From Eledone cirrhosa (Eukaryota): 64,000 nt of DNA. The notes beneath the pieces are model-generated. The model saw only the letters and a program-made list of their open reading frames with translations. It was not told the origin of the DNA and did no database searches. The DNA lies in contig OZ024747.1 in assembly GCA_964016885.1 (NCBI GenBank), positions 34,162,001 through 34,226,000 on the forward strand, in the 5' to 3' direction. Made by a program: the position numbers and the translations under genes. This document shows positions 5,392 through 59,380 of this stretch, piece after piece (position 1 is the first letter of the stretch; each line of letters opens with the position of its first letter).

Positions 5392-8300
5392 GGTGTAGTG
5401 GAGACTGGAATGTCATGTGACAGACTCTCACCCAGCAGGAGCTCCCTGGTCCAGCAGCAGGGACCTGGCTGTCATTCAAATACTGCTGGTGATGGAGGAA
5501 GAGGGAAAGGGACCAGAACCAACTGGACGAAAGAATTGAATAGAACTGTTATGCAATGTTACCTGAAGAGTAACCCCAAGGAAAAGGGCTATAGTAAACG
5601 GATGCATAACATCTGGAACGAGATTGGTGGATTTAAATTAGATGAACAAAAATTGGCTTGGCAGGCTCGAGTAATAAGAACTAATGGATGGATAAGCGAG
5701 CTGGAACTGGAGGTACTGAGCAGAGAGATTAGGTTGGAAATGGAGTGTGGAGTATGCCAGGCAAACGAGCCAGTGGGAAATGAAGGTCAAGAGGTTGAGA
5801 AAACGGAGGAACCATCCGAAGCAGACAATGATCTGAATGCTGAAATAAATAATACCTGGAACAAAGATACGGCCATTAAGGAAATTAATGCTGACGGGCT
5901 AGGACAATATTTGGTTGATATCCTAAACTTAGTGGTAGATGAAATGAATAATGATAGTGCGAAGACTATGAACCTAAGATTTGTAGAAAGGAAAAGGTTA
6001 AAAGAAACAGCAGCTAAGGTAAACAAAGTCATCCCATACCTTGAGGCGAGGAGCCTTCACCAGTGCAACAATATCTTCAAAGCAACAGCAAATGCGGTGA
6101 GGAAATTACTTGGCATAAAAGCGAGAGGAAGCAACGAACAAGAAAGATCAGAACCTTGGTGGAAGAAACGACTGAATAGTCAGATCAGGGAAATGAGAAA
6201 TGACATTTTAAGCTTGAGTCCCTACTGAATGGGACACTAAAAAACATAGGCACTAAAAATAGACTGGAAATAAAGTACAAAACTAGGAGGAAAAAGCTAA
6301 ATATTATCATAGAGGAACTGAAGCAAAGAGTGCAAAAATTAGGCGATACGAGAGCAGAGTCAGTAAGTATAGACAGAACCGCATGTTTGACCACAACCAG
6401 AAGATATTGTTTGGAAAGCTTGAAGGGAAAGAAAGAAGCAACGACTTGATCATTGAGGCGGAACAAACTAAGACATTCTGGAGAGGAATATGGGAGCAGG
6501 ACGTTAAACATAATGACTAGGCAGTGTGGATTGAGACAGTATAAAAGGAGATTAGTTAACAGGCACACCAACAAACTGATTTGAATATCACAGTTGAAAC
6601 TCTTAAGGAGCAGGCCAAAAAACTAACTAACTGGAAATCACCAGGCCCAGATGGTGTGCAGGGGTATTGGATTAAACATATAACAACCCTCCACCCGAAA
6701 CTGACAAACATGTTCAATGACTGCTTGATGTCAGGTGAGGTACCAGAGTGGTTGACAAAAGGTACCACAGTTCTGCTAATGAAAGACCGAATCAAGGGTA
6801 ATGATGTTACCAACTATAGACCTATCACATGTCTGTCCGTAATGTGGAAACTGTTAACAAGCATTGTGTCTGAGGAAATCTACCATCACCATCACACAAA
6901 CAACTTGTTACCGGACGAACAGAAATGATGCCGAAAGAAGTCCCGTGATACAAAGTACCAGTTACTTATTGATAAGATGCTTATGAGGAATTGCAAGAGG
7001 AGACACACTGGTCTCATTCTTGGATCACCAAAGGCCTAGAGATCTTTAAGTTGGCAGATAACATCAGACAATTGTTGAGCAAATGTATGAAGTCCTGGAA
7101 AACAGAGTTAACATCAGCTTGAGAATCCTTGGGAGGCGCGAAGATCAAGAGAGGTATCTCCCAGGGAGATAGTCTGTCCTGTCTGTAGTTTTTCCTTGCC
7201 ATGATGCCCTTGACCATTATACTGCGAAAAGTGACAGCAGGATACATTTTGGGAAAGGGAGAGCTCACCATCCATCACCTCCTCTTCATGGATGATCTTA
7301 AGCTCTTCGGGAAGAGTGAGAAGGAGTTGGATGTGCTTGTTGTCACTGTCTGTATTTTCAGCAATGATATATGTATGAAATTTGGTATTAGTAAGTGTGG
7401 AATCCGTGTGATGAAGAAACAGAATCTAGGTACCAACAGGTGAGATGATAAAGGAAATTGACACCGAAGAAGGATACAAATATTTAGGTGTTCTGGAGGC
7501 GGATGACATCAAGAACAAAGAAATGAAGGAATTGATAAGATCTGAATACATTCGGAGAGTAGGAGCGTATTAAAATCACATCTGAACAGTAGGAATGCCA
7601 TAAGTGCAGTAAATTCCCGAGCTGTGTCTATTATTAGGCACATTTTGAGAATTTAGAGAAGGAATGTTGCTGAACAAAAAGAAATGGATAGGAAGACTAG
7701 GAAGCTATGCACTATCTACAACATGTTCCACAAGAGGAGTGATGTCGATATACTCTACTTAAGGAGATCTGAAGGTGGAAGAGGTCTTATCAGCATAGAG
7801 GACTGTGTTCAGATGGAGAAAAACAACCTACACAAATACGTGACTGATAGTAGGGAGCCAATGCTCAGAATTGTACTGAAGGAGAAGACAATAGACCAGG
7901 GGATATCCAAAGAGGAAACAACAACAAGGAGAAAGTACAACCTTCATGAAAAATCCCTTCATAGTACCTTCTTTGAGAAAACTGAATTCAGAGATCCACA
8001 GGCATGGAACTGGTTGAAAAGAGGAGACCTTAAAAAGGCTACAGAAGAAATGCTAATGGCTGCGCAAGAGCAGGCCCTCAAGACGAAGTGGCTGAAACAC
8101 CATATTTACAATGAGGAGGCTAGCCCACTGTGTAGAATCTGTGGAGAGAGAGGAGACTGTGGCTCACATTGTATCCGAGTGTAAACACCTAGCCCAGACT
8201 CACTATAAAGGCTGGAGACATGATGTGATGAGCAGGGTGATCCAGTGGCACCTATGCAAAGTAGACAATCTACCACATTCTGAGAAGCCAGAGTCGGTGA

Positions 8301-12264: not shown

Positions 12265-12370
12265 TGGTCCCAGTAACTTATTTTAGTTATTGCTCGCACC
12301 AACCTGAGGTATCTGATTTTTAATGCGATGAAATACCAATCATGGTTGGAAAATCACTGACGAAGGACTA
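12265..12370 (+). ncRNA. Candidate non-canonically ordered, pseudoknotted hammerhead ribozyme with kink-turn, copy 1
   Basis: GGTA-TC-TGATTTT (12308-20) ... TGCGA-T-GAAA-TACC (12324-37) ... AAAATCA-CTGACGA-A-GGACTA (12350-70). Stems GGTA/TACC, TGATTTT/AAAATCA, TCGCA/TGCGA, CCAAC/GTTGG and TGGTCC/GGACTA. Confidence 0.7.
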
Positions 12371-12886: not shown

Positions 12887-13432
12887 GAGAAGAAAGAAGA
12901 GTACTGCATGGTTTGCACATGGGTTACAAATGATAAAAATAGTCCTTCGTCAGTGATTTTCCAACCATCATTAGTATTTCGTCGCATTAAAAATCAGATA
13001 CCTCAGGTTGGTGCGAGCAATAACTAAAATAAGTTATTGGGACCAGTAATCGCACAAAGCGAGGGGGACAAGTGAACAACATAGAAGGATAAAAACAAAC
13101 CAAAGAAAGGAAATAAACAAGCAACATGGTAGTCCTGGTCAACAAAAGCTGGGTGGATTTCATGAATGAAAGGAACAGATGTCCGACGTGAGTGAGATGT
13201 AAGCAAGAAGAGGCCCACTGTTAGCCAAACGGGAGGAAGTGAGAAGGGGAGAACAGAGAGTGAGTGAGTGGAAGTGCGAGGAAGAGGTCAGTCGAGAGAA
13301 AGTGTAACTGACAGAGGGGGCGAAAGAAGGTGAGGGAAACAGAGAGAGCGGGGAAGCAGTAAGAGAGAAACAGACAAACGCAGCCGAGGTAAATAAATAT
13401 AAAAAACATGAGAAGAAAGAAGAATACTACGT
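12881..13432 (-). mobile_element. About 550-bp non-coding pLTR/retrozyme-like element with 27-bp terminal direct repeats, carrying the unusual hammerhead
   Basis: AAACATGAGAAGAAAGAAGARTACTRC at 12881 and 13404; flanked by (TA)n; partial copies at 12241-12432 (opposite strand), 12467-12540 and 31741-32112. Confidence 0.8.
12940..13045 (-). ncRNA. Candidate non-canonically ordered hammerhead ribozyme, copy 2 (intact box C/D kink-turn)
   Basis: Reverse complement reads TGGTCC..TCGCA CCAAC CTGA GGTA TC TGATTTT TAA TGCGA C GAAA TACT AAT GATG GTTGG AAAATCA CTGACGA A GGACTA. Confidence 0.7.
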
Positions 13433-15295: not shown

Positions 15296-15778
15296 TTAAA
15301 CCATATTTAATGCTGGTCTATATTTTTGAATAAACACATTTTCCTTATTTATTCGTATTTGTTCTGTTCTATTGTTAGCGGAAAGGTAAAATGGGAAGAC
15401 TTGGAATTTGGGTGTCTGATTACTTGCGCAAATGTCTAGATGTGCACTTAGTGGTATGTGTCTCGTGGTTGGATCTCGTAATTGTTGGCGATGAACTGTC
15501 ATTCTGTTTCTGAGTGTGGGTTTAGTTTGTCCTATATAATCTTCATTACATCCTTTACATTTAATGGCATAAAGTAGATTTTTTGATGAGCAAGTGAAGT
15601 GATTTTTTACAGTAAAATTTTGTCCTGATTTAAATGTATACGTGTTGCCTTCAATGAGGTGAGTGCAGGTTCCACAATTAGAGCGACCACATTTTTTGAT
15701 ACTTGGTTGTGGGTTTGTGGTAGGTAATTTGGCATTGGTGAGTAATGTTTTCAGTGATTTTGGTTGTCTTTTGGCTTT
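15296..15778 (-). pseudogene. Neptune PLE C-terminus: Cx4CxxC linker plus GIY-YIG endonuclease (open frame, 5'-truncated)
   Basis: Reads KKCGRSNCGTCTHL...FTCSSKNLLYAIKCKGCNEDYIGQT...RMTVHRQQ...LSAHL...KENVFIQKYRPALN. Confidence 0.9.
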
Positions 15779-28610: not shown

Positions 28611-31232
28611 ACTAGCAGTGGTACCCGGCGTTGCACGGGATCAGGTATTTTGGAAGGCGGACCACCAACAGACCTAATCGTGAAAAAACTGCATGCCTGG
28701 ACAATATGTAATGAAAATAAACCGAATAATTTGAAGGTTGGATAATCTTTAAGATTTTCCTCCATGAAGCAGGAAAAATGCAGGTTTTCACCTAATGGAT
28801 CAAGGGGATCAAGCTTTAGGGATTCAAACTCACACACACACAGACAGACATCCTCAGTTTTATATATACATATATACTTGCAGAAGTACAAGGCGTTGCC
28901 CGGGTGTAAGTCGACCTTTGCTCTTGTGAAAATGTGTGAAAGTTACTTCCCGCGCACCACAGGTGCAAAAACCTTCGAAGGAAAAAAACAGAGCTTAGTA
29001 GACGCAGGTGTGTAATTGAGCATAAATAATGGATCAATTGTAGGTTCACAGTGTATCGTTGAAATTGTTCTTTACACGACTGACAAAGTCAAATTCACTT
29101 GAAATTGAATTTTCAGTTGAAAGCAGGGTGAAAAAGTCGAGTTTTTCACATTTTTGTTTTTTTACAATTTTCGCGCTCACATGTGCAGAAGAAGAAATAA
29201 ATGGAACTTTATCTGAACCGCGGCATAATGGCGAGTCTTTTGCGATAGTTTTCAAGAAAATCGGATGTTCCTGTAAAAAGTTTTCCCATGTACAACTTTG
29301 CCTTGTTTTTTGCGCAAAGTCGAACACCCGCATCAGTTTTATTGATTTTTTACATGAATGCGTGACCTTTGAAGTAGATTTGAGTAGCTAAAAACCTGTC
29401 CCGGTAAATTTGCGATAGGTGAAAAAAAGTTGATCAAAATTGTGTCTAGGGTTATTGCCCTTTGCAACAGCCGCAAGTATGGTTTGTTAATTTGTTGTGG
29501 AACTAAATCGACTTTGGTCAAATCGGACCGAGGAAACAATGTTTCCATTTGTCTTTCTAGCTGGTGTACCCGGTTACACTGGATTTAAACGGGTCTGCGC
29601 TAAATTCCAGCAGGATGCTTTAACCGAAATAAATGAAGAACAAACGTTTATTTTTGTGCTCCAATCTGTGATATTGGTATTTTGAAAAAATAGTCCACAA
29701 ACATCCATGGAGCATGTGAAATGCATGTATCAGGTTATGAGAAAAAGGGTTTTCGATTCTCCATTCATAAGATACCAAAAAATTGCACGCAAATAAACCG
29801 GGATTTCAAGGCACTGGCCATTTCATAGCTGAAAGGTAAGAATCAAGTGGAATAATGTTTTGCGACATTGTCAAATGTACAACCGTACAAAAGCAAAGGA
29901 TATAGCCATTGAAATCTAGGTAGACCAAAGAATATCAGAGGATTATTTTCATTGTGATTGGCGTCTAGCCTACAAAGTGAAGTTAAATGATTGTGGTCGA
30001 TGTTGTATCAATAAAAAATAAAAGCATACGGAAGACTGAACACTTACGAATTAAGTGAAAATCACGTTGATATTCCTATCGGAGCAACATGTGCCGAAAA
30101 ACCTGACGGACTGTTGTGTCGATATTGAAATCGTAGAAATTGCGAATCCCGAACTCTAAAATGTAATGGATAGGCCTTGGAGGTGAAGAGGAAGAATTGG
30201 TACAATTGTTTTGCTGAACATGTTGACCATTAATTTAAATAGACTTACGCAACATCACTTATGGACTACAATGAGGGCCGGTTAAATGCGGCAGAAAAAT
30301 AAGCCATGCTGATGATGTTTAGGGGCGTCGCAGCGAATCGATGTGGCGTTGTGAGTCAATTGTGAGGGCAGTGGAAGTCACGCTGATCGCTTTAAAAGAC
30401 GCGATGTTACACAGGTTGCTTCTCGGTCATAATTGACAGAAAGGCATGTGAGGAGAAATGAAAGAGTTGCTATTCATCCTTTGCTTAGCATGATGAACAT
30501 GTAATTAACAAGATTTACCATGGACTATCGTGCACGTTGGTATTGTGTTTAGCCTGCAAAAATCGGTGGTCAAATGGGGCAACAATAAGCCATGCTGATG
30601 ACGTTTAAGAGGGTGGAAAGGAATTGATGCGGCATAGATACCCATGGGAGTCTTGAAGGAGCACGGCGGTCAGGAAAAAGAAAGGGCCGAGGATGGGATG
30701 GTGGCTGATAGTGCATGGCCGGAGTCGCGACAAATGGAAGCAAGAGGAATAGCGATTTTCGGTTGCCGGATTTTTGCCTCTGGGGGTCCTATTATCGAGT
30801 TTTTGAAAATCTCAAGTAATCCACGTTGGTCTCTGCATCAAAATACATACCTACGTCAAATTTCATTGGAATCTGACAAATTTCGTAAATATCGATTTTT
30901 GCATCTGGTGATCCAACTATCGATTTTTCGAAAATCTAATGTAGCCCACGTTCATTCCCAGATCGAAATACACACTTGCGTCGAGTTTCATCGAAATCGA
31001 ACGATTTTTTAAGATATCGATTTTTGAAAATATCGATTTTTGAAAATATCAATATTTTGGCTTCTGGGGGCACGATTGTCGAATTTTCGAAAATTTCAAG
31101 TAGCCTATTCCAATCAAGAGGTCGAGTTTTATATACGTGTCAAGTTTCATAAAAATCGGATGAACGGTGTAGCCTGCAATTTCGGGACAGCAAACATACG
31201 AACAACGCCCAACTTCACTTGATATATAAGAT
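28611..31232 (+). mobile_element. Tandem Helentron/HINE (DINE-1-like) non-autonomous elements (28611-28875 and 28876-31232); a further 5' end at 28320
   Basis: 5' ends ACTAGCAGTGGTACCCGGCGTTGCACGGG and ACTTGCAGAAGTACAAGGCGTTGCCCGGG; repeated AAGTTTCAT..AATCGG subterminal motifs; 3' ends CACACAGACAGACA..TTTTATATATA and ACTTGATATATAAGAT. Confidence 0.65.
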
Positions 31233-31430: not shown

Positions 31431-31522
31431 CAGTTGTCTACTGGGGGTCTCGGATATATCAAAGCTTTAAAGACAATATGTCTACCCCAAGAGCGTTCAA
31501 TAACTTGATAAGTTATTGGGAA
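31431..31522 (-). ncRNA. Divergent, core-broken relic of the kink-turn/pseudoknot hammerhead architecture
   Basis: Reverse complement TCCC AATAAC-TTATCAA-GTTATT GA ACGCT CTTGGGG TAGA CATA TT GTCT TTAA AGCTT T GATA TATC CGA GA CCCCCAG T AGAC AA CTG; same order of helices, different stem sequences. Confidence 0.45.
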
Positions 31523-31951
31523 AACGGAGGAGGGGGATGGAGGGGAAAAGGGAAAAAAGGGAAGAAAAGAGAAGAACAGCGAAAAAAAGAACAAACCGAA
31601 GAATGTGTGAGCAACTTAAGGTAACAAAGTCCACATCGGTAACTGAACGTAACATTGAGTGCGTGTGGGTGAACGAAAAGAGACGTCTGACTCCAGCGAG
31701 TGTAAGTGAGTAAAGGACTGCCAGAGGGTGTATATATATATACTTCCACTCACTCACTCACCGTTTCTCCCCTTCTCACTTCCCCCCGTTCGCTACGAAA
31801 ACGATTTCCTTCTTTCTTACATCAGATTCATCGCTCATATATTCACCCAGCTTATACTGATAGAATAACTATGTAGCTTGTGTTTCTTCCTATCTTCGGT
31901 CAGCTTTCCCCTGTTTGTTTACTTGTCTCACTCGCTTTACGAGTTTTAATT

Positions 31952-32052
31952 GTCCTAATAACTTATTTTAGTTATTATTGCACCAACGTGAGGTATATGA
32001 TTTTTAATGCAATGAAATACCAATGACCGTTGGCTAATCACTGATGAGGGAC
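31952..32052 (+). ncRNA. Candidate non-canonically ordered hammerhead ribozyme, copy 3 (diverged subfamily)
   Basis: GTCC..TTGCA CCAAC GTGA GGTA TA TGATTTT TAA TGCAA T GAAA TACC AAT GACC GTTGG CT AATCA CTGATGA G GGAC; compensatory changes relative to copies 1 and 2. Confidence 0.72.
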
Positions 32053-32111
32053 TCATTTTATAACATGTTATCCATGTGCAACCATGCAGTATTCTTCTCC
32101 CCATATTTTTC

Positions 32112-32148
<37 letters not shown>

Positions 32149-32234
32149 TGAGATTCTACAGGACTAGAACTTTTCATTCTTTAGAAATCATCAGGAATCT
32201 GGCTATCCCAAAATAAAATTATTTTTGAATAGCT

Positions 32235-32285
32235 AGATTCCTGATGATTTCTAAAAAATGAAACAGTTCTAGCCCTGTAGAATCT
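32235..32285 (+). ncRNA. Type I hammerhead in a PLE pLTR fragment; inverted twin at 32151-32200
   Basis: AGATTC CTGATGA TTTCTAAAAAAT GAAA CAG-TTCTAGCC-CTG TA GAATCT. Confidence 0.8.
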
Positions 32286-32367
32286 CATCTATATTAAAAC
32301 TGTTATACTCTGCTATGTATTGAGTACCTTACTTACTGTGGTTACCTCCGATTCAACACGGAATAAC

Positions 32368-35114: not shown

Positions 35115-35196
35115 ACTTCCCTGATGACGAAAGGCTTCTCCGTACACTTCTTCGGAAAGTATGTTTATTCCCTTTCAGAACTAATTAGTTGGGAGT
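35115..35196 (+). ncRNA. Type I hammerhead, relative of 21342-21420 (one A of GAAA lost)
   Basis: ACTTCC CTGATGA C GAAAGG...CCTTTC A GAA CTAATTAG TT GGGAGT. Confidence 0.7.
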
Positions 35197-35730: not shown

Positions 35731-36679
35731 AGGCATTATTTTAATTTTTAAAGATTTATACTTCCTTTTAGACTTCAGATATTTTTTGAAAGCTAAGCAT
35801 TGGCCCCTAAAATACAACGGGGGGCTCTGCAATGCTACCGTGGGCCCTCTGGGGCAACCTGGTAACCTGGCCAGTCCGCGACTGTACATGTATAAAGCCG
35901 GCCATTTATCGCTCGTATACAGGAAATTGACTGGCCAGTCTGCTGATATGCAAATCTGGCTGATCAGTGGATCTGCTGATATGCAGATCTGACTGATCAG
36001 ACAGTGTGCTAATATGCAAATCAGGCCGATCTGTCACTGTGTATTTTTGAAAATAGCATATATTTTCACTAGCTCTGACAGTTTGGCAGCTGAACAGTGA
36101 GCTGTGCTGATGAAGGGTGATACCTAGAAACATTAGTGTCTACAGTTCTGTTCGCATGCCAACATCAGAGCAAGAATGGAGTGTTCATTCTACTGACAAG
36201 GCTATACAATTGAGGCTTGTTTGCATAATTGCAAACGGATAGAATGTCATTATTAATATTCGAAAAACTCAAATTACATTTATTGTATTCAGCCAAATAG
36301 AGCGAACTTTTCTTTTTTATATATATATGGCTTCTACATGACTAGAATTGTTTCATTCTGGAGAAATCATCAGGATGTCGACTGTCCAAGTAATATGGTG
36401 GTATTTATATATTTTCTGGTGGTAGGAGAGGGTGGTGATTGGATGGGTGTAGGTCATGACGGAAAATGCCACAATGAGTATAAATATTTACATATATCAC
36501 ATATGAGGGCACGTAAATATACTAAAGAAAATGAATCCCTATGAAAATTGAGAAAATGATAGACGTTTTTAATCTATTTTCGGGTTATTCAACCCTGATC
36601 AAAAGACGTGTATATCACCCAATCGACCACAAGAAAATATTTATTTGATTTGTATATCAACTCATTCGTACATAGTACT

Positions 36680-37859: not shown

Positions 37860-39180
37860 TTATGCATAATTCTTCATCCTACTTTAGACTTTATACAGAA
37901 TTATACCGGCATTATCATAAACTCGGTGAGATCCTAACTTATATTAATTGTCCCTCAGCCCCCCCCCCCTCATCTGTTCTTAAATCCACTGTAAAGTCTA
38001 TTTCACACAGAATCTCTAGGCTATCCGCAAATGAGAATATATTTAATGTTATTTCTTTATGCTATAACAAAGCTATTTCTAAATCAGGCCATACGGATAA
38101 AATGTACTACTTACCTTCTGTTATATCCACCCAACAATTAAGTAATAATAATGTAATCACACAGAATAGTATCCATAGTAAGAATAGATTTAAAAGCGCT
38201 AATATAAAAAGGTGTACTCCTGGTAATGACCCGCTACCTACTCCTAGCAATACATTTAGAATTAGCTCTAATAGAAAACCTAACCAGTTGCTTTCCTTTA
38301 ACACTAAATATTCATCCGTAGCTACCCTTGAAAATTTAAAGAATAATTAAAACTCACTTATAAACCCATCTATTATTCCTAGTAGCACGCGCTGTAAGAG
38401 ATCTCCTAGTGTATCCTGGCCAAATCCTCCCTTCTCGGGTAATGTAGCTTCTAACCTTCTTAGAATGTTCTTCACCATCCTGCGTAATAACTTTCCTCCT
38501 GACCACAAATACTATAAACTTTTTAACAAAAATGACGTTAAGATTTCTTTCTCTAGCACCCTTAACTTTGCCAATTATATCACCTTTAGTAACCATAAGA
38601 AATTAAATGACCATAGAGCATCCCTTTCTGATGATATACTTCTACCTAATAACTATCTACATATAAATAATTCTAACTATAATTCTACTCCTGTTAAACC
38701 CCTTATGTCCTCGCCTGTATCCTCTAGTCCTGCACCTTCACCTACACTATCTACTAATGTTAACCGTAAATGTAATTGCAGAAAATCTGACAACTGCCCT
38801 CTGAATAAGAATTGCCTTACTAATAACATAATGTATAGATGCACTGTTCAGACTTCTAATGACACTAAAACTTACATTGGAGCTACTGCTAACTCTTTCA
38901 AGACTCATTTTAATTCTCATACAAATTCATTTAGGAATAGTAGCTTCTACTTCACTGGCTAGACATGTAAATGCACTTAAACTCTCCACTATTGAATACT
39001 CTCTTGTTTGGGGTGTTTTAGCCATATCCTCCCCATACAAAGGACATAAGGACCATTGCGATCTTTGTCTGAACCTTATTTCATAACCTTATATAAACTC
39101 CACCCAATTAATGACTGCAGTGAGATAGTTATTAATTGCTATCACTGTTTGAAATACTTATTCGCTAATAGATATCATCT
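37860..39180 (+). pseudogene. Decayed Hydra-type PLE: RT thumb plus CxC linker plus GIY-YIG
   Basis: SISHRISRLSANENIF; NPPFS; NFPPDHKYYKLFNKNDVKISFS; KCNCRKSDNCPLNKNCL; KTYIGATANSFK; CDLCL. Confidence 0.88.
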
Positions 39181-43329: not shown

Positions 43330-45815
43330 AAAGAGGAAATAATATTATTTACAAACATGGATTGATGGAAAACGTTCCTTCTTTGAGGAGACAAATGGCC
43401 GTCCGGGACTGGATGTGTTTTCCCTTTTTAGAGAATTAATATGTAGGGGAGGTAATTCACAGTGTGAGGTTAGGGTAGGAGAAAGAGAGGAGAGGGAGTA
43501 ATTCATTTATTTAAGAAATAGGAATAGGCAGGGTGTGAGGGAGGTAACTCCTTAGAGAACACAGAAATTTGAGATATGGGTAACGTAGAAATAGAAGTAA
43601 AATAGGTTGACACTAGTGTTCACTGTTCATTCTAGTTTTAGTTTAGTCCGAAGTTTAGTCCATTTAGAAGGGGTTGGAATTTTTTAATGAAGTACGTTTC
43701 CTTATTAGTGCGTTGGATGAAAGAAGCGTTGTCTATGACATTGTAGAGGGGGAAAATTATAACGTTTGGTAGTTGGTCAGGTGCAGAGTTGGCGATATGT
43801 TCACTAAGAGCAATCTTTCTGTATTCCTGTATTTTGATTTGTGATCTATGGACGGTCATACGTTGTCGGAGGCTATTTTTTATCTGTCCTATGTAGTTCT
43901 CAGACAACCTGAGCAGGTCAAAACATAGATTAGGTTTTCAGATGCACATATAAAGTATTTAACTGTGAAATGTTGTCCTTGTTTAAAGTGGAATGTTGAA
44001 CCTTCTATTAGATGTATGCATATACCACCGTTGAGTCTTCTGCATATTTTTTTACTGTATGGTTCTTTGTGAGGGCTGGCTGGATTTGGGCTTGTGTGAG
44101 GATGTTTTTATGGTTTTAGGTTTTCTTTTGATCTTTATGATGTTGTGTGTTTGGAGCATTTTATTCATTCTTGGGTCTTTATTTAGTAAAGGATCGTGTC
44201 GAATGCCTCATTGTTGTGTGTGGAGATGTATGGTAGAGTTTTCTGTTTCGGTCCATCCTTGGTTTGAGGTGTCTAAGTTCCTGGATATTGAGTTTTAGGG
44301 CACGTTGGAATCCATTGTTGATTAGGGAAGGTGGGTAATTTCTGCTGATAAGAGTGTTATTAAACTCTTCTAATCGTGTGTAGCATGTGTATTTATCAGA
44401 AACTATTGTGCAGATCCTTTTGGCTAGGTTATAAGGAATTTTCATTTTGGTATGGCGAGGGTGGAACGAGTTAAAGGGAAGATATTGGTTGGAGACTGTG
44501 TGTTTATAGTATATGTCTGTTTCTATTTTGTTGTTTGTTTTCTTGATGAGGATGTCAAGGAAAGGGAGTTGTTCGTGGCAGTATTCCATTGTAAATTGAA
44601 TGTTTGTGTTGAGTCTATTTAGAACGGTTTTAAACTCAATAAGTCTTTCTATACTTCCATGCCAGAGGATGAAGCAGTCTTCCAAATATCTCTTCCAGGT
44701 TTTTCTATGTGGATGTAGAAGGGTTTTCCATATTTGTCTAGAAATTTTCGGTAGAGAGTGGTTTCCAAATATCCCATGAAAAGGTTGGCGTATGACGGTG
44801 TTACTTTCGTGCCAATGGCAGTCACACATTTCTGTCTGTAGTATTGGGCATCGAATTCGAAGTAGTTATTCTCCAAGATGAATTTGAGGCCATCCATCAC
44901 AAATCCTTTAAAGATGCGCCGTGGAAGTTCATTAGGGTAATTTTCAACCCATAATTGGATTGCCTTTATACCTAGGTTGTGTGGGATATTGGAATAAAGA
45001 TTGATTACATCAAAGGGTACTAGTAGGGTATGTTCATTATTAAGTGTTATTAGCAGGTGGTTGAGCATATCTAGGTCGTCCATATGTAGCTTTTAATGTG
45101 TTCAGGAATGGTTTAAGCAGTATATCTAGGAAGTTGCTTAGGCGGTGAGTTTCAGAAGTGGTACCTGCTATTATGGATCTTAATTTGAAGTCATTAGGAG
45201 GGGGGGACATTGATGAAAATGTCTGTGGCTACTTTGCAGGCCTTGTTCGCTTCTTCGCTTTTGTGTATCTTTGGGATACCGTAGAAAAGACTGGGTCTGC
45301 TTTTGAAGTTAGTGATATAGTTGTACTCCTTGTCGGTAATACCTTCTTAGTAACGGGTATTTAGCGATTTTAGGTTTCTCATTATTTCTGTTGGCTGTAG
45401 TGTTGAGCCTTTTCGTAGTATGCTTCGTTTTCTAGAGTTGAGAGTACTATGGTTGTGTAGTATTCTGTCTTCATAAGGACTACTGCACGCCTCTTTGGTA
45501 GTGTAGTATTCTGTCTTCATAAGGACTTACTGCACGCCTCTTTCATTGTTAGGGTTTTTGTCGTTCTTTAAACTGTTAAGACCATTCCATTCTTTTTTGT
45601 TGAGGTTTGGTTTGTGTTTATGTCTGTGTAGGTGATGGTATGGGTAATTAGTAATGTGTTTGTAGAATTAACCGAGGAATTTGTTCTTACCTTTTGGTGG
45701 GGTATAGTTGCTTCTATTTCTGGCTATAGTCGTCCTCATTGTATTTGTCGTGTAGTTGCTCGCTAAGTCTTAGTTTTCTACAGAATTCTGCAATATCTTC
45801 CTCCATTTCAGGTTA
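43330..45815 (-). mobile_element. Decayed Neptune-type PLE (RT plus GIY-YIG)
   Basis: FDVINLYSNIPH, AIGTKVTPSYANLFMG, WKRYLEDCF (decayed YxDD), LPFLDI, HPRHTK, ENYIGQ..LRQRMTVHRSQI, FQPLLN. Confidence 0.92.
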
Positions 45816-49371: not shown

Positions 49372-51525
49372 GTATGAGCCCGACAGCAGAGCTCAAGCCG
49401 CTTCGACGGCTATTTCTGGACTAAATTAGAATTTTTAGCCTGGAGAATAAATAGCCGAACTTGTCAAGGGGGTACTTCCTTATATGGGAAGATTGTAGTT
49501 GTCAAGAGGATTAGTTTAAATTTGTTGTAAACACAAATAAGTCTATCATGGCATTTGGTGGGATGTAGGGGTGGCTGAACTTGCCTGTAGAACAATCGGG
49601 GAGTGAGTGGAGTCGGTCAAGCATTGAAAGTGATATGTATACAGCAGATTCTAAGGATAGTGTATGAAATGGAGGAGGGAGGTTATAGATTAGGTAATTC
49701 GAATGAGAGTAGGAGACAATAAAAGATAATAGAAATAAATTAAAAAAATATATAAAATTAGTGAGAAATGAATAACATTTATTTTTTTAAATCACAATGC
49801 TATCTTACAATTACAGGTTAATAAGTTGAGAATAGAAAAAAATTGTAGAAATGGAGTAGTAATAAAACTGATATAAAATTAAAGGGGTCTAAAACATCTG
49901 CAATAAGTAGTTAGTAAAACGTATTCGGCCAATTCTATCTTAAATTTCCAGGGGTGAGGGAACTGATGCTACAGAGGCCCGCTAGGCGGCATCGTGGTAG
50001 GCGAAAGGGGAAAAGCAGACGAGGAAGAAAATAGGGGGTGGAAGGAAGTGATAGGATGAGACAGGGGGAAGAAGAAGACATAGAGGAAAATAAAAGAGAT
50101 ACATCTACCTATGTAAGCTGGGGTTTCCCCTAACTTATTCGGCGATTGAGGGCCTGGTTGTAATTAGGCGCATGTTCGTCGAATATCTGCTCATTAGCGG
50201 ACACACGAGATATGCGGAGGGAGATGTTTTTAACCAGGTTATTGGTGATGTTTAAAGGATGGTTAGATCGGAGGTGCATGTAGTGCAGGTTGTCGTTTGG
50301 TTTCCGGTATGCGTAGTACATATCATTTTTGAGGTTAAGGGAAATTAACTCGGGTTAGGGACGTTTGTAGGGCGATTTTAAATCGTATACAGTCCCGGAA
50401 GTGGTTGATTAGTTGTTTACGGACCCGATCTGTACTACTTACAACCAGGCCCTCAAGCGCAGTGGCTTCCGGGAGGAAATATCCTTTTATCCAGCTTCCC
50501 TTAGCGGAACCAGCAAGCGACACCGCCGCTCACGCAACGTGACGTGCTTCAATCCTCCCCATAATGCCGAGGTGGCAACATATATCGGGAAAATCTTCTT
50601 TAAGCTCCTCAAAAACACTTTCCACTACAAAACCGCTACCACAACATAATCAACAAAAATACCATCAAACTCTCGTACAGCACCACACCTAAATTCGCAC
50701 TAAACATCGTCTCCTCAAACAACAAAAACTCAACCCCTATGGAAGAAACAACCATCAGTGGAGAGCCAGCCAGGAGGTGTAACTGCCCTGATAGATCTAC
50801 GTGCCCCATCAATAACAAATGCCGAGAACGTAACGTCATCTACCAGTGCAACGTGAGGACGGACACCTCCAACAAAGCTTATATAGGATTAACCGCGTGA
50901 GACTTCAAGACCCGGCTCTACCAACACCGACATACTTTCCAAAACCCGGTCCGGCGATATGCCACTACACATTCGGGCCACAACTGGGACCTCCAAGATA
51001 ATAATATAACCTACAATCTCACTTGGAGCTTACTGTCCAGAGCTAACTCTTACACGAGAGGACGCCGTCCGTGTAACTTACGCTCAGAGGAAACATTACA
51101 AATGCGGTTTTCGAAGGACCAACTCCGAAAAAAGAAAGACGAACTTGTAACCGCATGCAAACACAGATTGCGTAGGACTTACCTCACCCTCAAACCCCAT
51201 AACGACCCGGGTGGGTAGAAACGGGCTGATATGTCTTCTTCTTCTCCCTGTCTCATCCTATCACTTCCTCCCCACTATTTTCTTCCTCGTCTGCTTTTCC
51301 CCTTTCGCCTACCCCGATGCAGCCCATCGAGCCACTGTAGCATCAGTTCCCCCACCCCTGTAATTTTAAGATGGAATTGGCCCAATACGTTTTACTAACT
51401 ACTTATAACAGATGTGTTAGACCCCTTTAATTTTGTATCAGTTTTGTTACTACTCCATTTCTACAATTATTTTCTATTCTCAACTTATTAACCTGTAATT
51501 GTAAGATAGCATTGCGATTTTTCTT
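49372..51525. mobile_element. Hydra-type PLE with complex inversion: pLTR (-) 49372-50120, RT fragment (-) 50135-50345, GIY-YIG part (+) 50436-51217, pLTR (+) 51230-51525
   Basis: Coding parts are closely similar to ORF 58242-59210; 49780-50095 is inverted relative to 51230-51525; decayed UUGACAA hammerhead at 49377-49473. Confidence 0.88.
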
Positions 51526-58241: not shown

Positions 58242-59380
58242 CTACACCCCCGGGTCATTATGGGGTTTGAGGGCGAGGTAAGTCCTACGCAATCTATGTT
58301 TACATGCAGTAACCAGTTCATCTTTCTTGTTTAGGAGTTGGTCCGTCGAAAACAGCATTTGTAAAGTTTCCTCCGAGCATAAATTGCACGGACGGCGTCC
58401 TCCCGTGTAAGAATTGGCTCTGGACAGTAATCTCCAAGTGAGATCATAGGTGATGTTGTTGTCCTTGAGGTCCCATATGTGGCCCGAAAGTGTAGTGGCG
58501 TGACGCCGGGCCGAGTTTCGGAAGGTATGTCGATGTTGGTATGGCCGGGTCTTGAAGTCACATGCGGTTGGTCCTATGTAAGCTTTGTTGGAGGTGTCCG
58601 TCCTCACGTTGCACTGGTAGATCACATTGCGGTCTCTGCATCTATTGTCGAGTGGGCAAATGGATCTATCCGGACAGTTGCACCTCCTAGTCGGCTCTCC
58701 ACTGCTATTTAGGTTATTTCTTCCATCGGGGTTGAGTTTTTTGTTGTTAGAGGAGACGATGTTTTGTGCGAAGTTTGGTGTAGTGCTGTAAGAGAGTTTG
58801 ATGGTATTTTTGTTAATTATGTTGTGGTAGCGGTGTTGTAGTGGGAAGTGTTTTTCAATGAGCCTAAAGAATAGTTTCCCGATGGGAGTTGTCACCTCTG
58901 CGTTGAGGGGAGGATTGAACCATGTTACATTGCGTGAACGGCGGTGTCTCCTGCTGGTTCCGCTAATGGGAGCTGGACAGTAGGATATTTCCTCCCGGAA
59001 ACCACTCAGCTTCAGGGCCTGGTTGTAATAAGGCGCATGTTCATCAAATATCCGCTCATTAGCTGACAAACGGGATATGCGGAGGGAGATGTTTTTGACC
59101 AGGTTGTTGGTGATGTTCCTAGGATGGTTTGATCGGCGGTGGATGTAGTGCAGGTTGTCATTAGGTTTCCTGTATGGGTAGTACAGGTCGTTTTTGAGGT
59201 CGAGGGTCACGTCCAGGAAGTTTACTCGGGTCAGGGACGTTTGTAGGGTTATTTTAAATCACCAGTCGCGGAAGAAGCTGATTAATTGTTTCCGGAACCG
59301 ATCTGTACTACTGGGGTTGTACCCTTTAAGGGTAAGGAGCCCATCATCACGGTACAATCCACCACCGAATGCATTGTACT
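58242..59380 (-). pseudogene. PLE polyprotein 3' half: RT motif YRDD, thumb, CxC-x4-C-x5-C linker, GIY-YIG endonuclease
   Basis: GGGLYRDDGLL upstream (one stop) joined to the 322-aa ORF: WFNPP, CNCPDRSICPLDNRC, VIYQC..AYIG, CNLC, LLNKKDE. Confidence 0.92.

Follow-up and report, generated by a model that had tools for sequence, protein, structure and literature searches.

To our knowledge, non-circularly permuted RNAs are known from one paper, and their SGC form has been seen only in environmental RNA. Eckert et al. 2023 named this block order SGC and demonstrated cleavage in vitro; according to the main portions of that paper, the published SGC RNAs come from metatranscriptomes only, none is placed in the genomes of known organisms besides one GCS candidate, and the joining of the distant helix ends is an open point (PMC10085705). 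Hammerhead variants with extra helices are mentioned in a passage of PMC13725137. Animal retrozymes are described, in excerpts of the two sources, as circle-making tandem repeats tied to Penelope-like elements (PMC7229834; bioRxiv 10.64898/2026.07.22.740005). Naiads, which encode GIY-YIG plus a reverse transcriptase, are reported in the relevant sections of PMC8557442 without hammerheads, with partial cores flagged in the metadata; Naiad_Obim and Naiad_Ovul both prefer (TA)n (PMC8557442). In the literature searched, which covered few subscription papers, no SGC-order ribozyme is reported from an animal genome.

The window analysed here is a stretch of 64,000 nucleotides from Eledone cirrhosa (contig OZ024747.1, positions 34,162,001 to 34,226,000). 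Three copies of a 101-102 nt motif in it look intact, and a fourth is decayed (Table 1). A descriptor search of the window returned exactly copies 1 to 3, and Rfam at gathering score gave no match within it. Copy 4 lies head to head with copy 3, with a short (TA)n tract between them. The initial annotation had read copy 3 as a hammerhead in the order C-B-A; this reading is supported, and the order is that of the published type SGC. We put at roughly three in four the probability that copy 3 is part of a non-coding repeat, present in high copy number, that specifies a predicted SGC-order hammerhead RNA cutting after A31997 and likely spreads as a retrozyme by means of a Penelope-like reverse transcriptase. 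The RNA is likely self-cutting because the hammerhead parts are present and the helices are kept by paired mutations across subfamilies.

Table 1 Features in the window and predicted parts of copy 3 (position 1 is the first letter of the window)
Feature	Position	Strand	Remarks
Copy 3, predicted permuted hammerhead	31952..32052	+	block order cleavage site, GAAA, CUGAnGA; from sequence and descriptor search
5'-truncated retrozyme-like element carrying copy 3	31742..32134	+	(TA)n end at ~32113-32134; shared right end
Copy 1, subfamily B	12267..12368	+	k-turn-like loop G1b changed to C
Copy 2, subfamily B	12942..13043	-	tail to tail with copy 1
Copy 4, decayed, older subfamily	31431..31523	-	GAAA and CUGAnGA damaged; profile match E=2.5e-14
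Helix a, 5' strand GTCC	31952..31955	+	partner GGAC 32049-32052; 94% paired
7-bp hairpin at junction between helices a and b	31956..31977	+	both partners change in 5 of 7 pairs
Helix b (stem II), 5' strand TTGCA	31978..31982	+	partner TGCAA 32008-32012
Helix c, 5' strand CCAAC	31983..31987	+	partner GTTGG 32029-32033; arm past k-turn-like loop
K-turn-like loop, non-bulged strand GTGA	31988..31991	+	bulge AAT 32022-32024; bulged strand GACC 32025-32028
Stem III strand GGTA, U16.1 (31996), H17 (A31997)	31992..31997	+	predicted cut after 31997
Stem I 5' strand (31998-32003) and invariant TAA linker to b' (32005-32007)	31998..32007	+	
Position 11.1 (32013), GAAA (32014-32017), stem III strand TACC (32018-32021)	32013..32021	+	
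Stem I 3' strand (private T at 32035), CTGATGA (32041-32047), variable base 32048	32035..32048	+	

The repeat is abundant and has a defined architecture. An exact pattern matched at least 10,630 copies (5,313 + 5,317) over the 3.0-Gb genome versus 0 + 1 in the control; a second pattern, whose matches partly overlap these 10,630, found 617 + 615 more diverged matches (1,232) versus 2 + 6 (8) in the control. Forty 10-kb stretches at round coordinates (400 kb) contained 7 matches in 5 stretches, and extrapolation from these gives a genome total of roughly 50,000 copies, with wide error. About a dozen subfamilies were sampled. All sister loci have a common right end at (TA)n and differ in their left ends; the (TA)n lies 70-79 nt after CUGA in 25 of 35 copies of subfamily A and 28 of 31 of subfamily B. 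Units follow one another in tandem at a spacing of 510-575 nt (630-637 nt in subfamily C), the longest array comprising five in a row at a spacing of 533, and copies often stand head to head. A full unit, pyrimidine-rich, measures 529 nt in locus L004 (copy at L004:1513-1613), and the monomer is weakly structured (-68.8 versus -62.7, sd 4.3). ARAGORN found a tRNA in none of six loci, so no tRNA-derived SINE head is indicated, and no upstream reading frame or coding sequence is shared among 280 copies. The element consists of non-coding tandem units with a predicted hammerhead in each, which is the hallmark of a non-LTR retrozyme; (TA)n targeting, partial tandems and inverted truncated copies are all present.

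Positions within the motif follow the conventional hammerhead numbering, and the loop is compared with the box C/D k-turn consensus. From 5' to 3', the strands are arranged as a, hairpin, b, c, k-turn strand, stem III, U-H, stem I, TAA, b', X, GAAA, stem III', a 3-nt bulge, GA, c', stem I', CUGAnGA, N and a'. The hammerhead core (CUGAnGA, GAAA and UH, with H not G) is present, as is the S, G, C order with crossing stems. Stems I and III, which flank the cleavage site, are 95-99% paired, with double changes in both. U16.1 occurs in 176 of 181 copies without internal change, and H17 is C in 94, A in 79, U in 8 and G in 0. Nested folding of copy 3 yields helix a, the hairpin, c and III only (z=-1.55). 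The loop of copy 3 has the k-turn features of a 3-nt bulge followed by G1b.A1n and A2b.G2n; in subfamily J these are missing, and a larger loop takes the place of the k-turn. Among 181 copies, G1b is found in 172 and A2b in 179, both counts being partly preset by the search patterns, and A1n in 168; position 2n is G in 139 and U in 38. The k-turn strands of subfamilies B, D and K read CUGA/AUGAUG, with U.U at the third position, and are box C/D-like. At the base of stem II, the base at 32013 (X) pairs with that at 32048, after CUGAnGA, in 135 of 181 copies (p=0.005); in subfamilies J and L its partner is an upstream G, and in subfamily G it pairs with neither base (C.A there). A conserved G10.1-C11.1 pair is lacking, and the assignment of the closing pair 10.1-11.1 is doubtful. 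The hairpin is longer in loci L192:1435-1560 and L217:1502-1619, of subfamilies J and L, where a G-C pair formed with the upstream strand adjoins GAAA.

The helices vary in sequence and retain their pairing. Helix a occurs as GTCC/GGAC, ATCC/GGAT and TTCC/GGAA; helix b as TCGCA/TGCGA, TTGCA/TGCAA, ACGCA/TGCGT and GCGCG/TGCGC; helix c as CCAAC/GTTGG, CTGGC/GCCAG, CTAGG/CCTAG, CTGGG/CCCAG and CTACG/CGTAG; stem III as GGTA/TACC, GATA/TATC, GACA/TGTC and GATG/CATC; and stem I as TGATTT/AAATCA, TGGCCT/AGGCCA, TAGTCT/AGACTA and TTGTCT/AGACAA. For covariation we aligned 181 of 200 distinct sequences, 19 rows with other spacing (subfamily J and one relative) being dropped, and applied our own G-test with APC and a tree-based null. 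When all positions were compared against all, 2 of 5,050 pairs reached E<0.05, namely the k-turn pair 31988-32028 (E=0.01) and 31985-32031 (E=0.02) in helix c, the helix with the strongest covariation; non-partner pairs ranked 4th, 6th and 7th. With p x 35 < 0.05 as threshold, 8 of the 35 proposed pairs passed: one each in helices a and b and in the k-turn pair, three in c and two in stem I, with no single significant pair in stem III or the hairpin. The outer pair of helix a appears as G-C, A-U and U-A (p=0.0003), the first pair of helix b as U-A, A-U and G-C (p=0.0012), its last pair often being mismatched (107 of 180 paired), and stem I pair 31999-32039 as G-C, U-A and A-U (p=3e-5); stem I pair 32002-32036 has p=0.0013.

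Counts of events on the tree agree with these tests. On internal branches, defined as those with four or more leaves, 57 changes kept pairs and 11 broke them, versus 93 and 217 on terminal branches (p=2e-16), and compensatory doubles numbered 18.9 versus 0.96 under the null, with a maximum of 4 in 400 simulations. In a control that preserves the history of every column and shuffles the partners, 19.9 co-changes were counted overall versus 3.3, and 4.0 versus 0.9 for the hairpin; single helices gave p values of 0.002 (c), 0.011 (III), 0.03 (a), ~0.04 (b) and ~0.08 (stem I). The initial annotation had held that a lack of significant covariation in the crossing helices of a larger alignment would speak against it; in an approximate form of this check, 13.2 same-branch co-changes were counted over the crossing helices (b, c, k-turn pair, III and I), versus 2.1 with shuffled partners (p=0.002). 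Furthermore, in 29 real copies chosen from different subfamilies, pairing holds in 95.9% of cells and both partners have changed in 22 of 33 pairs, a result equalled by 0 of 500 shuffles, and slid partners pair in 26-49%. All 11 fixed core positions and the TAA linker are free of internal-branch changes, and N7 and H17 vary. The collection procedure accounts for part of this conservation, as the patterns used to gather many of the loci themselves specify core sequence (CUGAnGA, GAAA); U16.1, H17 and all 5' partner strands stand in no pattern. The helices are conserved by selection on pairing, and the crossing helices covary as a group.

The genome-wide data also place the earlier comparison of copy 3 with copies 1 and 2, both of which exist, in context. 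The changes from TCGCA/TGCGA to TTGCA/TGCAA, from CTGA/GATG to GTGA/GACC at the k-turn pair (relative to copy 2), from C to U at N7 and from C to A at H17 (31997) are all in the sequence, and CTGA.GA, GAAA and U16.1 are unchanged across copies; a further double change, C-G to U-A, affects the hairpin closing pair 31956-31977. As support for pairing, however, the C-G to U-A change at 31979-32011 is real but a single event (p=0.16), and three copies from two subfamilies are insufficient by themselves to establish the covariation that the genome-wide test shows. The two GA steps had been called invariant, yet the bulged-strand GA of copy 1 reads CA, and the A-U starting state given for 10.1-11.1 holds for copy 1 but is A.C in copy 2. 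The flanks are indeed more diverged, with copies 2 and 3 being 85% identical in the ribozyme, 66% over 150 nt upstream and 75% over 55 nt downstream. The shortening of stem I to 5 bp is correct for copy 3, but reflects one private change at 32035, its sole difference from a sister sequence with a 6-bp stem I that is common to 27 copies. Rather than an old diverged copy, copy 3 is a member of a separate young subfamily with 29 other loci at 98% identity.

The life cycle that we propose starts from features seen directly in the copies, namely the block order, the conserved helices, the tandem units, the fixed (TA)n 3' end and the variable 5' truncation. Transcripts spanning two units would be cut at successive ribozymes, after H17 as in hammerhead and retrozyme biology generally, to give a 529-nt monomer, which by the same analogy might be closed into a circle. 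A Penelope-like reverse transcriptase, whose autonomous source is likely a Naiad element, would prime from nicked (TA)n on the CACATATAT stretch ~115 nt past the cut site, and by running round the template could produce insertions that extend across the cut site and are 5'-truncated, tandem or inverted. The insertions start ~115 nt beyond the cut site and extend back across it over as many as several units; this requires a circular or uncut template. Stems I, II (helix b) and III are predicted to radiate from the core and rejoin at a second junction. As c' abuts stem I', b abuts c (0-1 base between) and TAA connects stem I to b', the three arms would have to meet at this junction. The k-turn-like loop would bend the stem III arm back toward the far ends of stems I and II. 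Ordinary hammerheads have a contact between loop I and loop II, and we postulate that this bend would replace it. The bend is a possible answer to the question of how helix ends are joined, as framed in the relevant section of Eckert et al. (PMC10085705).

Penelope-like sequences and other hammerheads were also seen around the copies. Broken canonical Penelope-like frames (reverse transcriptase, then GIY-YIG) stand head to head with copies at L110:4985-5915, L091/L092 and L078; in L110, frame and element are joined without a spacer, as if by one copying event from two RNAs. A 2.9-kb spacing in L091/L092, two loci that are duplicates of each other, was considered as an autonomous element and rejected: it contains a canonical Penelope-like frame that is broken, lies on the opposite strand and has an ordinary hammerhead of its own. 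Nor was adjacency to Penelope-like fragments accepted as evidence, given how common these are in control DNA. An ordinary-order hammerhead repeat at L091:5769-5866 (-) and 6293-6390 (+), which recurs in L055, L094, L098, L100, L101, L107 and L255, has CTGATGAAGGACTA and the GGAC/GTCC helix in common with the permuted element. It is a possible relative or ancestor of that element; an ordinary Penelope-type hammerhead containing this GGAC/GTCC helix may have been rearranged into the permuted form. At least six other repeat families contain ordinary CUGAnGA-stem II-GAAA halves (examples at L019:642, L260:9075-9214, L028:1936, L043:1956 and L155:1236), with 11 distinct matches in the 400 kb of control DNA. 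Within the window, tblastn places Penelope-like reverse transcriptase or GIY-YIG fragments at ~44047-44819 (-), 15479-15691 (-), 50524-51197 (+), 58263-59294 (-) and 38396-38944 (+), some of them inside large inverted repeats. At 35121-35195 (+), CTGATGA is followed by a hairpin and GAAA, and 35121-35158 fits a loose hammerhead pattern. A short inverted-repeat (MITE-like) family that contains CTGATGA...GAAA by pattern is found at 32146-32290, 30769-30901 and 36351-36373, adjoining copy 3.

Several other readings of these data have to be weighed. Covariation is blind to whether bases pair within a unit or between identical units, and with tandem copies being common, the same helices could form between neighbouring units as a domain swap or dimer, the working ribozyme then having the ordinary block order; dimeric cleavage is known for repeat-borne hammerheads (excerpted from PMC7229834). 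We consider this unlikely, given that all partners lie within 101 nt, that the 3-nt linker between stem I and b' and the block spacing are fixed across subfamilies, and that, in the sections concerned, published SGC RNAs cut as single short transcripts (PMC10085705) and Naiad consensus ends have one copy each (PMC8557442). The selected structure might instead serve the reverse transcriptase for recognition or priming, with little or no cutting, a role to which we assign a rather small chance. In its favour are the weak or missing closing pair of stem II and the insertions reading through the cut site, which imply an uncut or re-joined template. Against it are the conservation of the catalytic positions and of the not-G rule at H17, and the fact that natural hammerheads tolerate a mismatch at the base of helix II and remain able to cut (PMC7229834, in part).

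It is improbable, in our view, that the ribozyme acts as described but in units that are pLTR-derived pieces, produced when a Penelope-like enzyme, not necessarily that of a Naiad, jumps between templates while copying linear read-through RNA instead of circles. Arrays reach five equal units and no upstream coding sequence unites the copies, against the observation that partial tandems and inverted 5'-truncated copies are, in the part of Craig et al. 2021 concerned, the usual Penelope-like signature; the copy in L110 joined head to head with a canonical Penelope-like reverse transcriptase fragment proves little, since such fragments are common in the 400 kb of control DNA. Covariation as a by-product of subfamily descent, combined with a chance arrangement of hammerhead motifs, has close to negligible probability: although independent events per pair are few and non-partner columns also score high, three tree-aware controls and the low pairing of slid partners relative to real ones oppose it, and the event counts and the partner-shuffle control largely refute it.

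We retain a predicted SGC-order hammerhead in a likely retrozyme that uses a Penelope-like reverse transcriptase as the preferred interpretation, and the element is probably tied to Naiad elements. Read by eye in the part of the PMC8557442 supplement concerned, Naiad_Obim and Naiad_Ovul share at their 3' ends the helix order and hairpin loop of the present element and also have a k-turn-like loop, and three Acropora Naiad entries and about four others (three cnidarian and one arthropod by file order) display the S-G-C order (PMC8557442). This wiring was noted by eye in about 9 of the 54 consensus entries, only where the CUGAnGA term matched. In the Eledone genome, a GIY-YIG family search with 50 loci read revealed no Naiad gene, the order being reverse transcriptase then GIY-YIG where both were seen. 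An exact Naiad ribozyme pattern gave 0 matches over the genome, two Naiad protein-motif patterns gave 0 matches and 1 match that is not a Naiad, and a Naiad motif scan over 1.7 Mb found none. Lone decayed remnants resembling the octopus Naiad ribozyme occur in L382, L401, L402, L403 and L404 (C1, C4, C19, C22 and C17), with no upstream reading frame.

As a tentative proposal, to which we give somewhat less than even odds, Naiads of cnidarians, arthropods and cephalopods and their non-autonomous retrozymes may share a hammerhead wiring outside the six published permutations. In this wiring, the 5' strand of stem II would be uncoupled from CUGAnGA, and the three arms would form a cage closed at the second junction; in the Eledone lineage, a box C/D-type k-turn would close the cage, and host 15.5K could tune cutting versus re-joining of the circle. 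If true, this would explain the hammerhead-less look of Naiad elements. A plain role on offer for the SGC form is the processing of retroelement RNA, and tens of thousands of chromosomal copies in many subfamilies constitute a natural mutational series. Genome surveys of ribozymes and retrozymes would miss such a class, because the descriptors used assume the ordinary order.

Compared with known systems, the element resembles non-LTR retrozymes in its non-coding tandem units with one predicted hammerhead each, its thousands of copies and its low GC, and likely also in its dependence on Penelope-like elements (PMC7229834; bioRxiv 10.64898/2026.07.22.740005, both in part). Retrozymes as described carry type I hammerheads, in the portions covered, and were sought with type I descriptors, whereas the order here is SGC, not type I. 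Their units are mostly 150-450 nt and form highly self-paired circles (PMC7229834, in part), in contrast to units of 510-640 nt that are weakly folded. With Naiads (PMC8557442, in part) the element has in common the (TA)n preference, partial tandems and inverted truncated copies, all of which are shared with other Penelope-like clades, but unlike them it has no reading frame. Nematode Naiad entries show by eye the ordinary C-then-G order (PMC8557442, entries covered), and coral Naiads, like subfamily J, have a larger bulge than a k-turn. The loop itself matches a box C/D-type kink-turn, as outlined in part of PMC6779385, in its 3-nt bulge followed by G.A and A.G, and differs from it in having U at 2n in 38 of 181 copies.

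On sequence grounds, the motif is a predicted new variant of the SGC hammerhead in a retrozyme-like repeat, with a structure that is real and selected. It agrees with type SGC (HRIMA-1 and variants, as presented in the main portions of PMC10085705) in its S, G and C blocks, full core and ~3-nt linker between stems I and II, and with HRIMA-1 in the extra base after CUGAnGA (PMC10085705). A metagenome scan gave 0 matches, and of the 84 matches of a viral scan none has an upstream cleavage block. In the published SGC RNAs, as far as the figures and text covered show, stem II joins the strand before GAAA to the strand directly after CUGAnGA (PMC10085705), whereas here the strand before GAAA pairs with the upstream helix b, and GGAC after CUGAnGA forms a separate helix with the 5' GTCC. 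The pre-GAAA and post-CUGAnGA strands are joined by at most one pair, and the unbroken block C of type SGC is lacking. The SGC helix between the segment before stem I' and that after stem II' is absent as well, the former pairing with helix c instead. Stem III continues here through the k-turn-like loop, and the terms 'kink' and 'k-turn' do not occur in the available text of PMC10085705 or its supplement. Finally, the published SGC RNAs are metatranscriptomic, whereas the Eledone copies are chromosomal.
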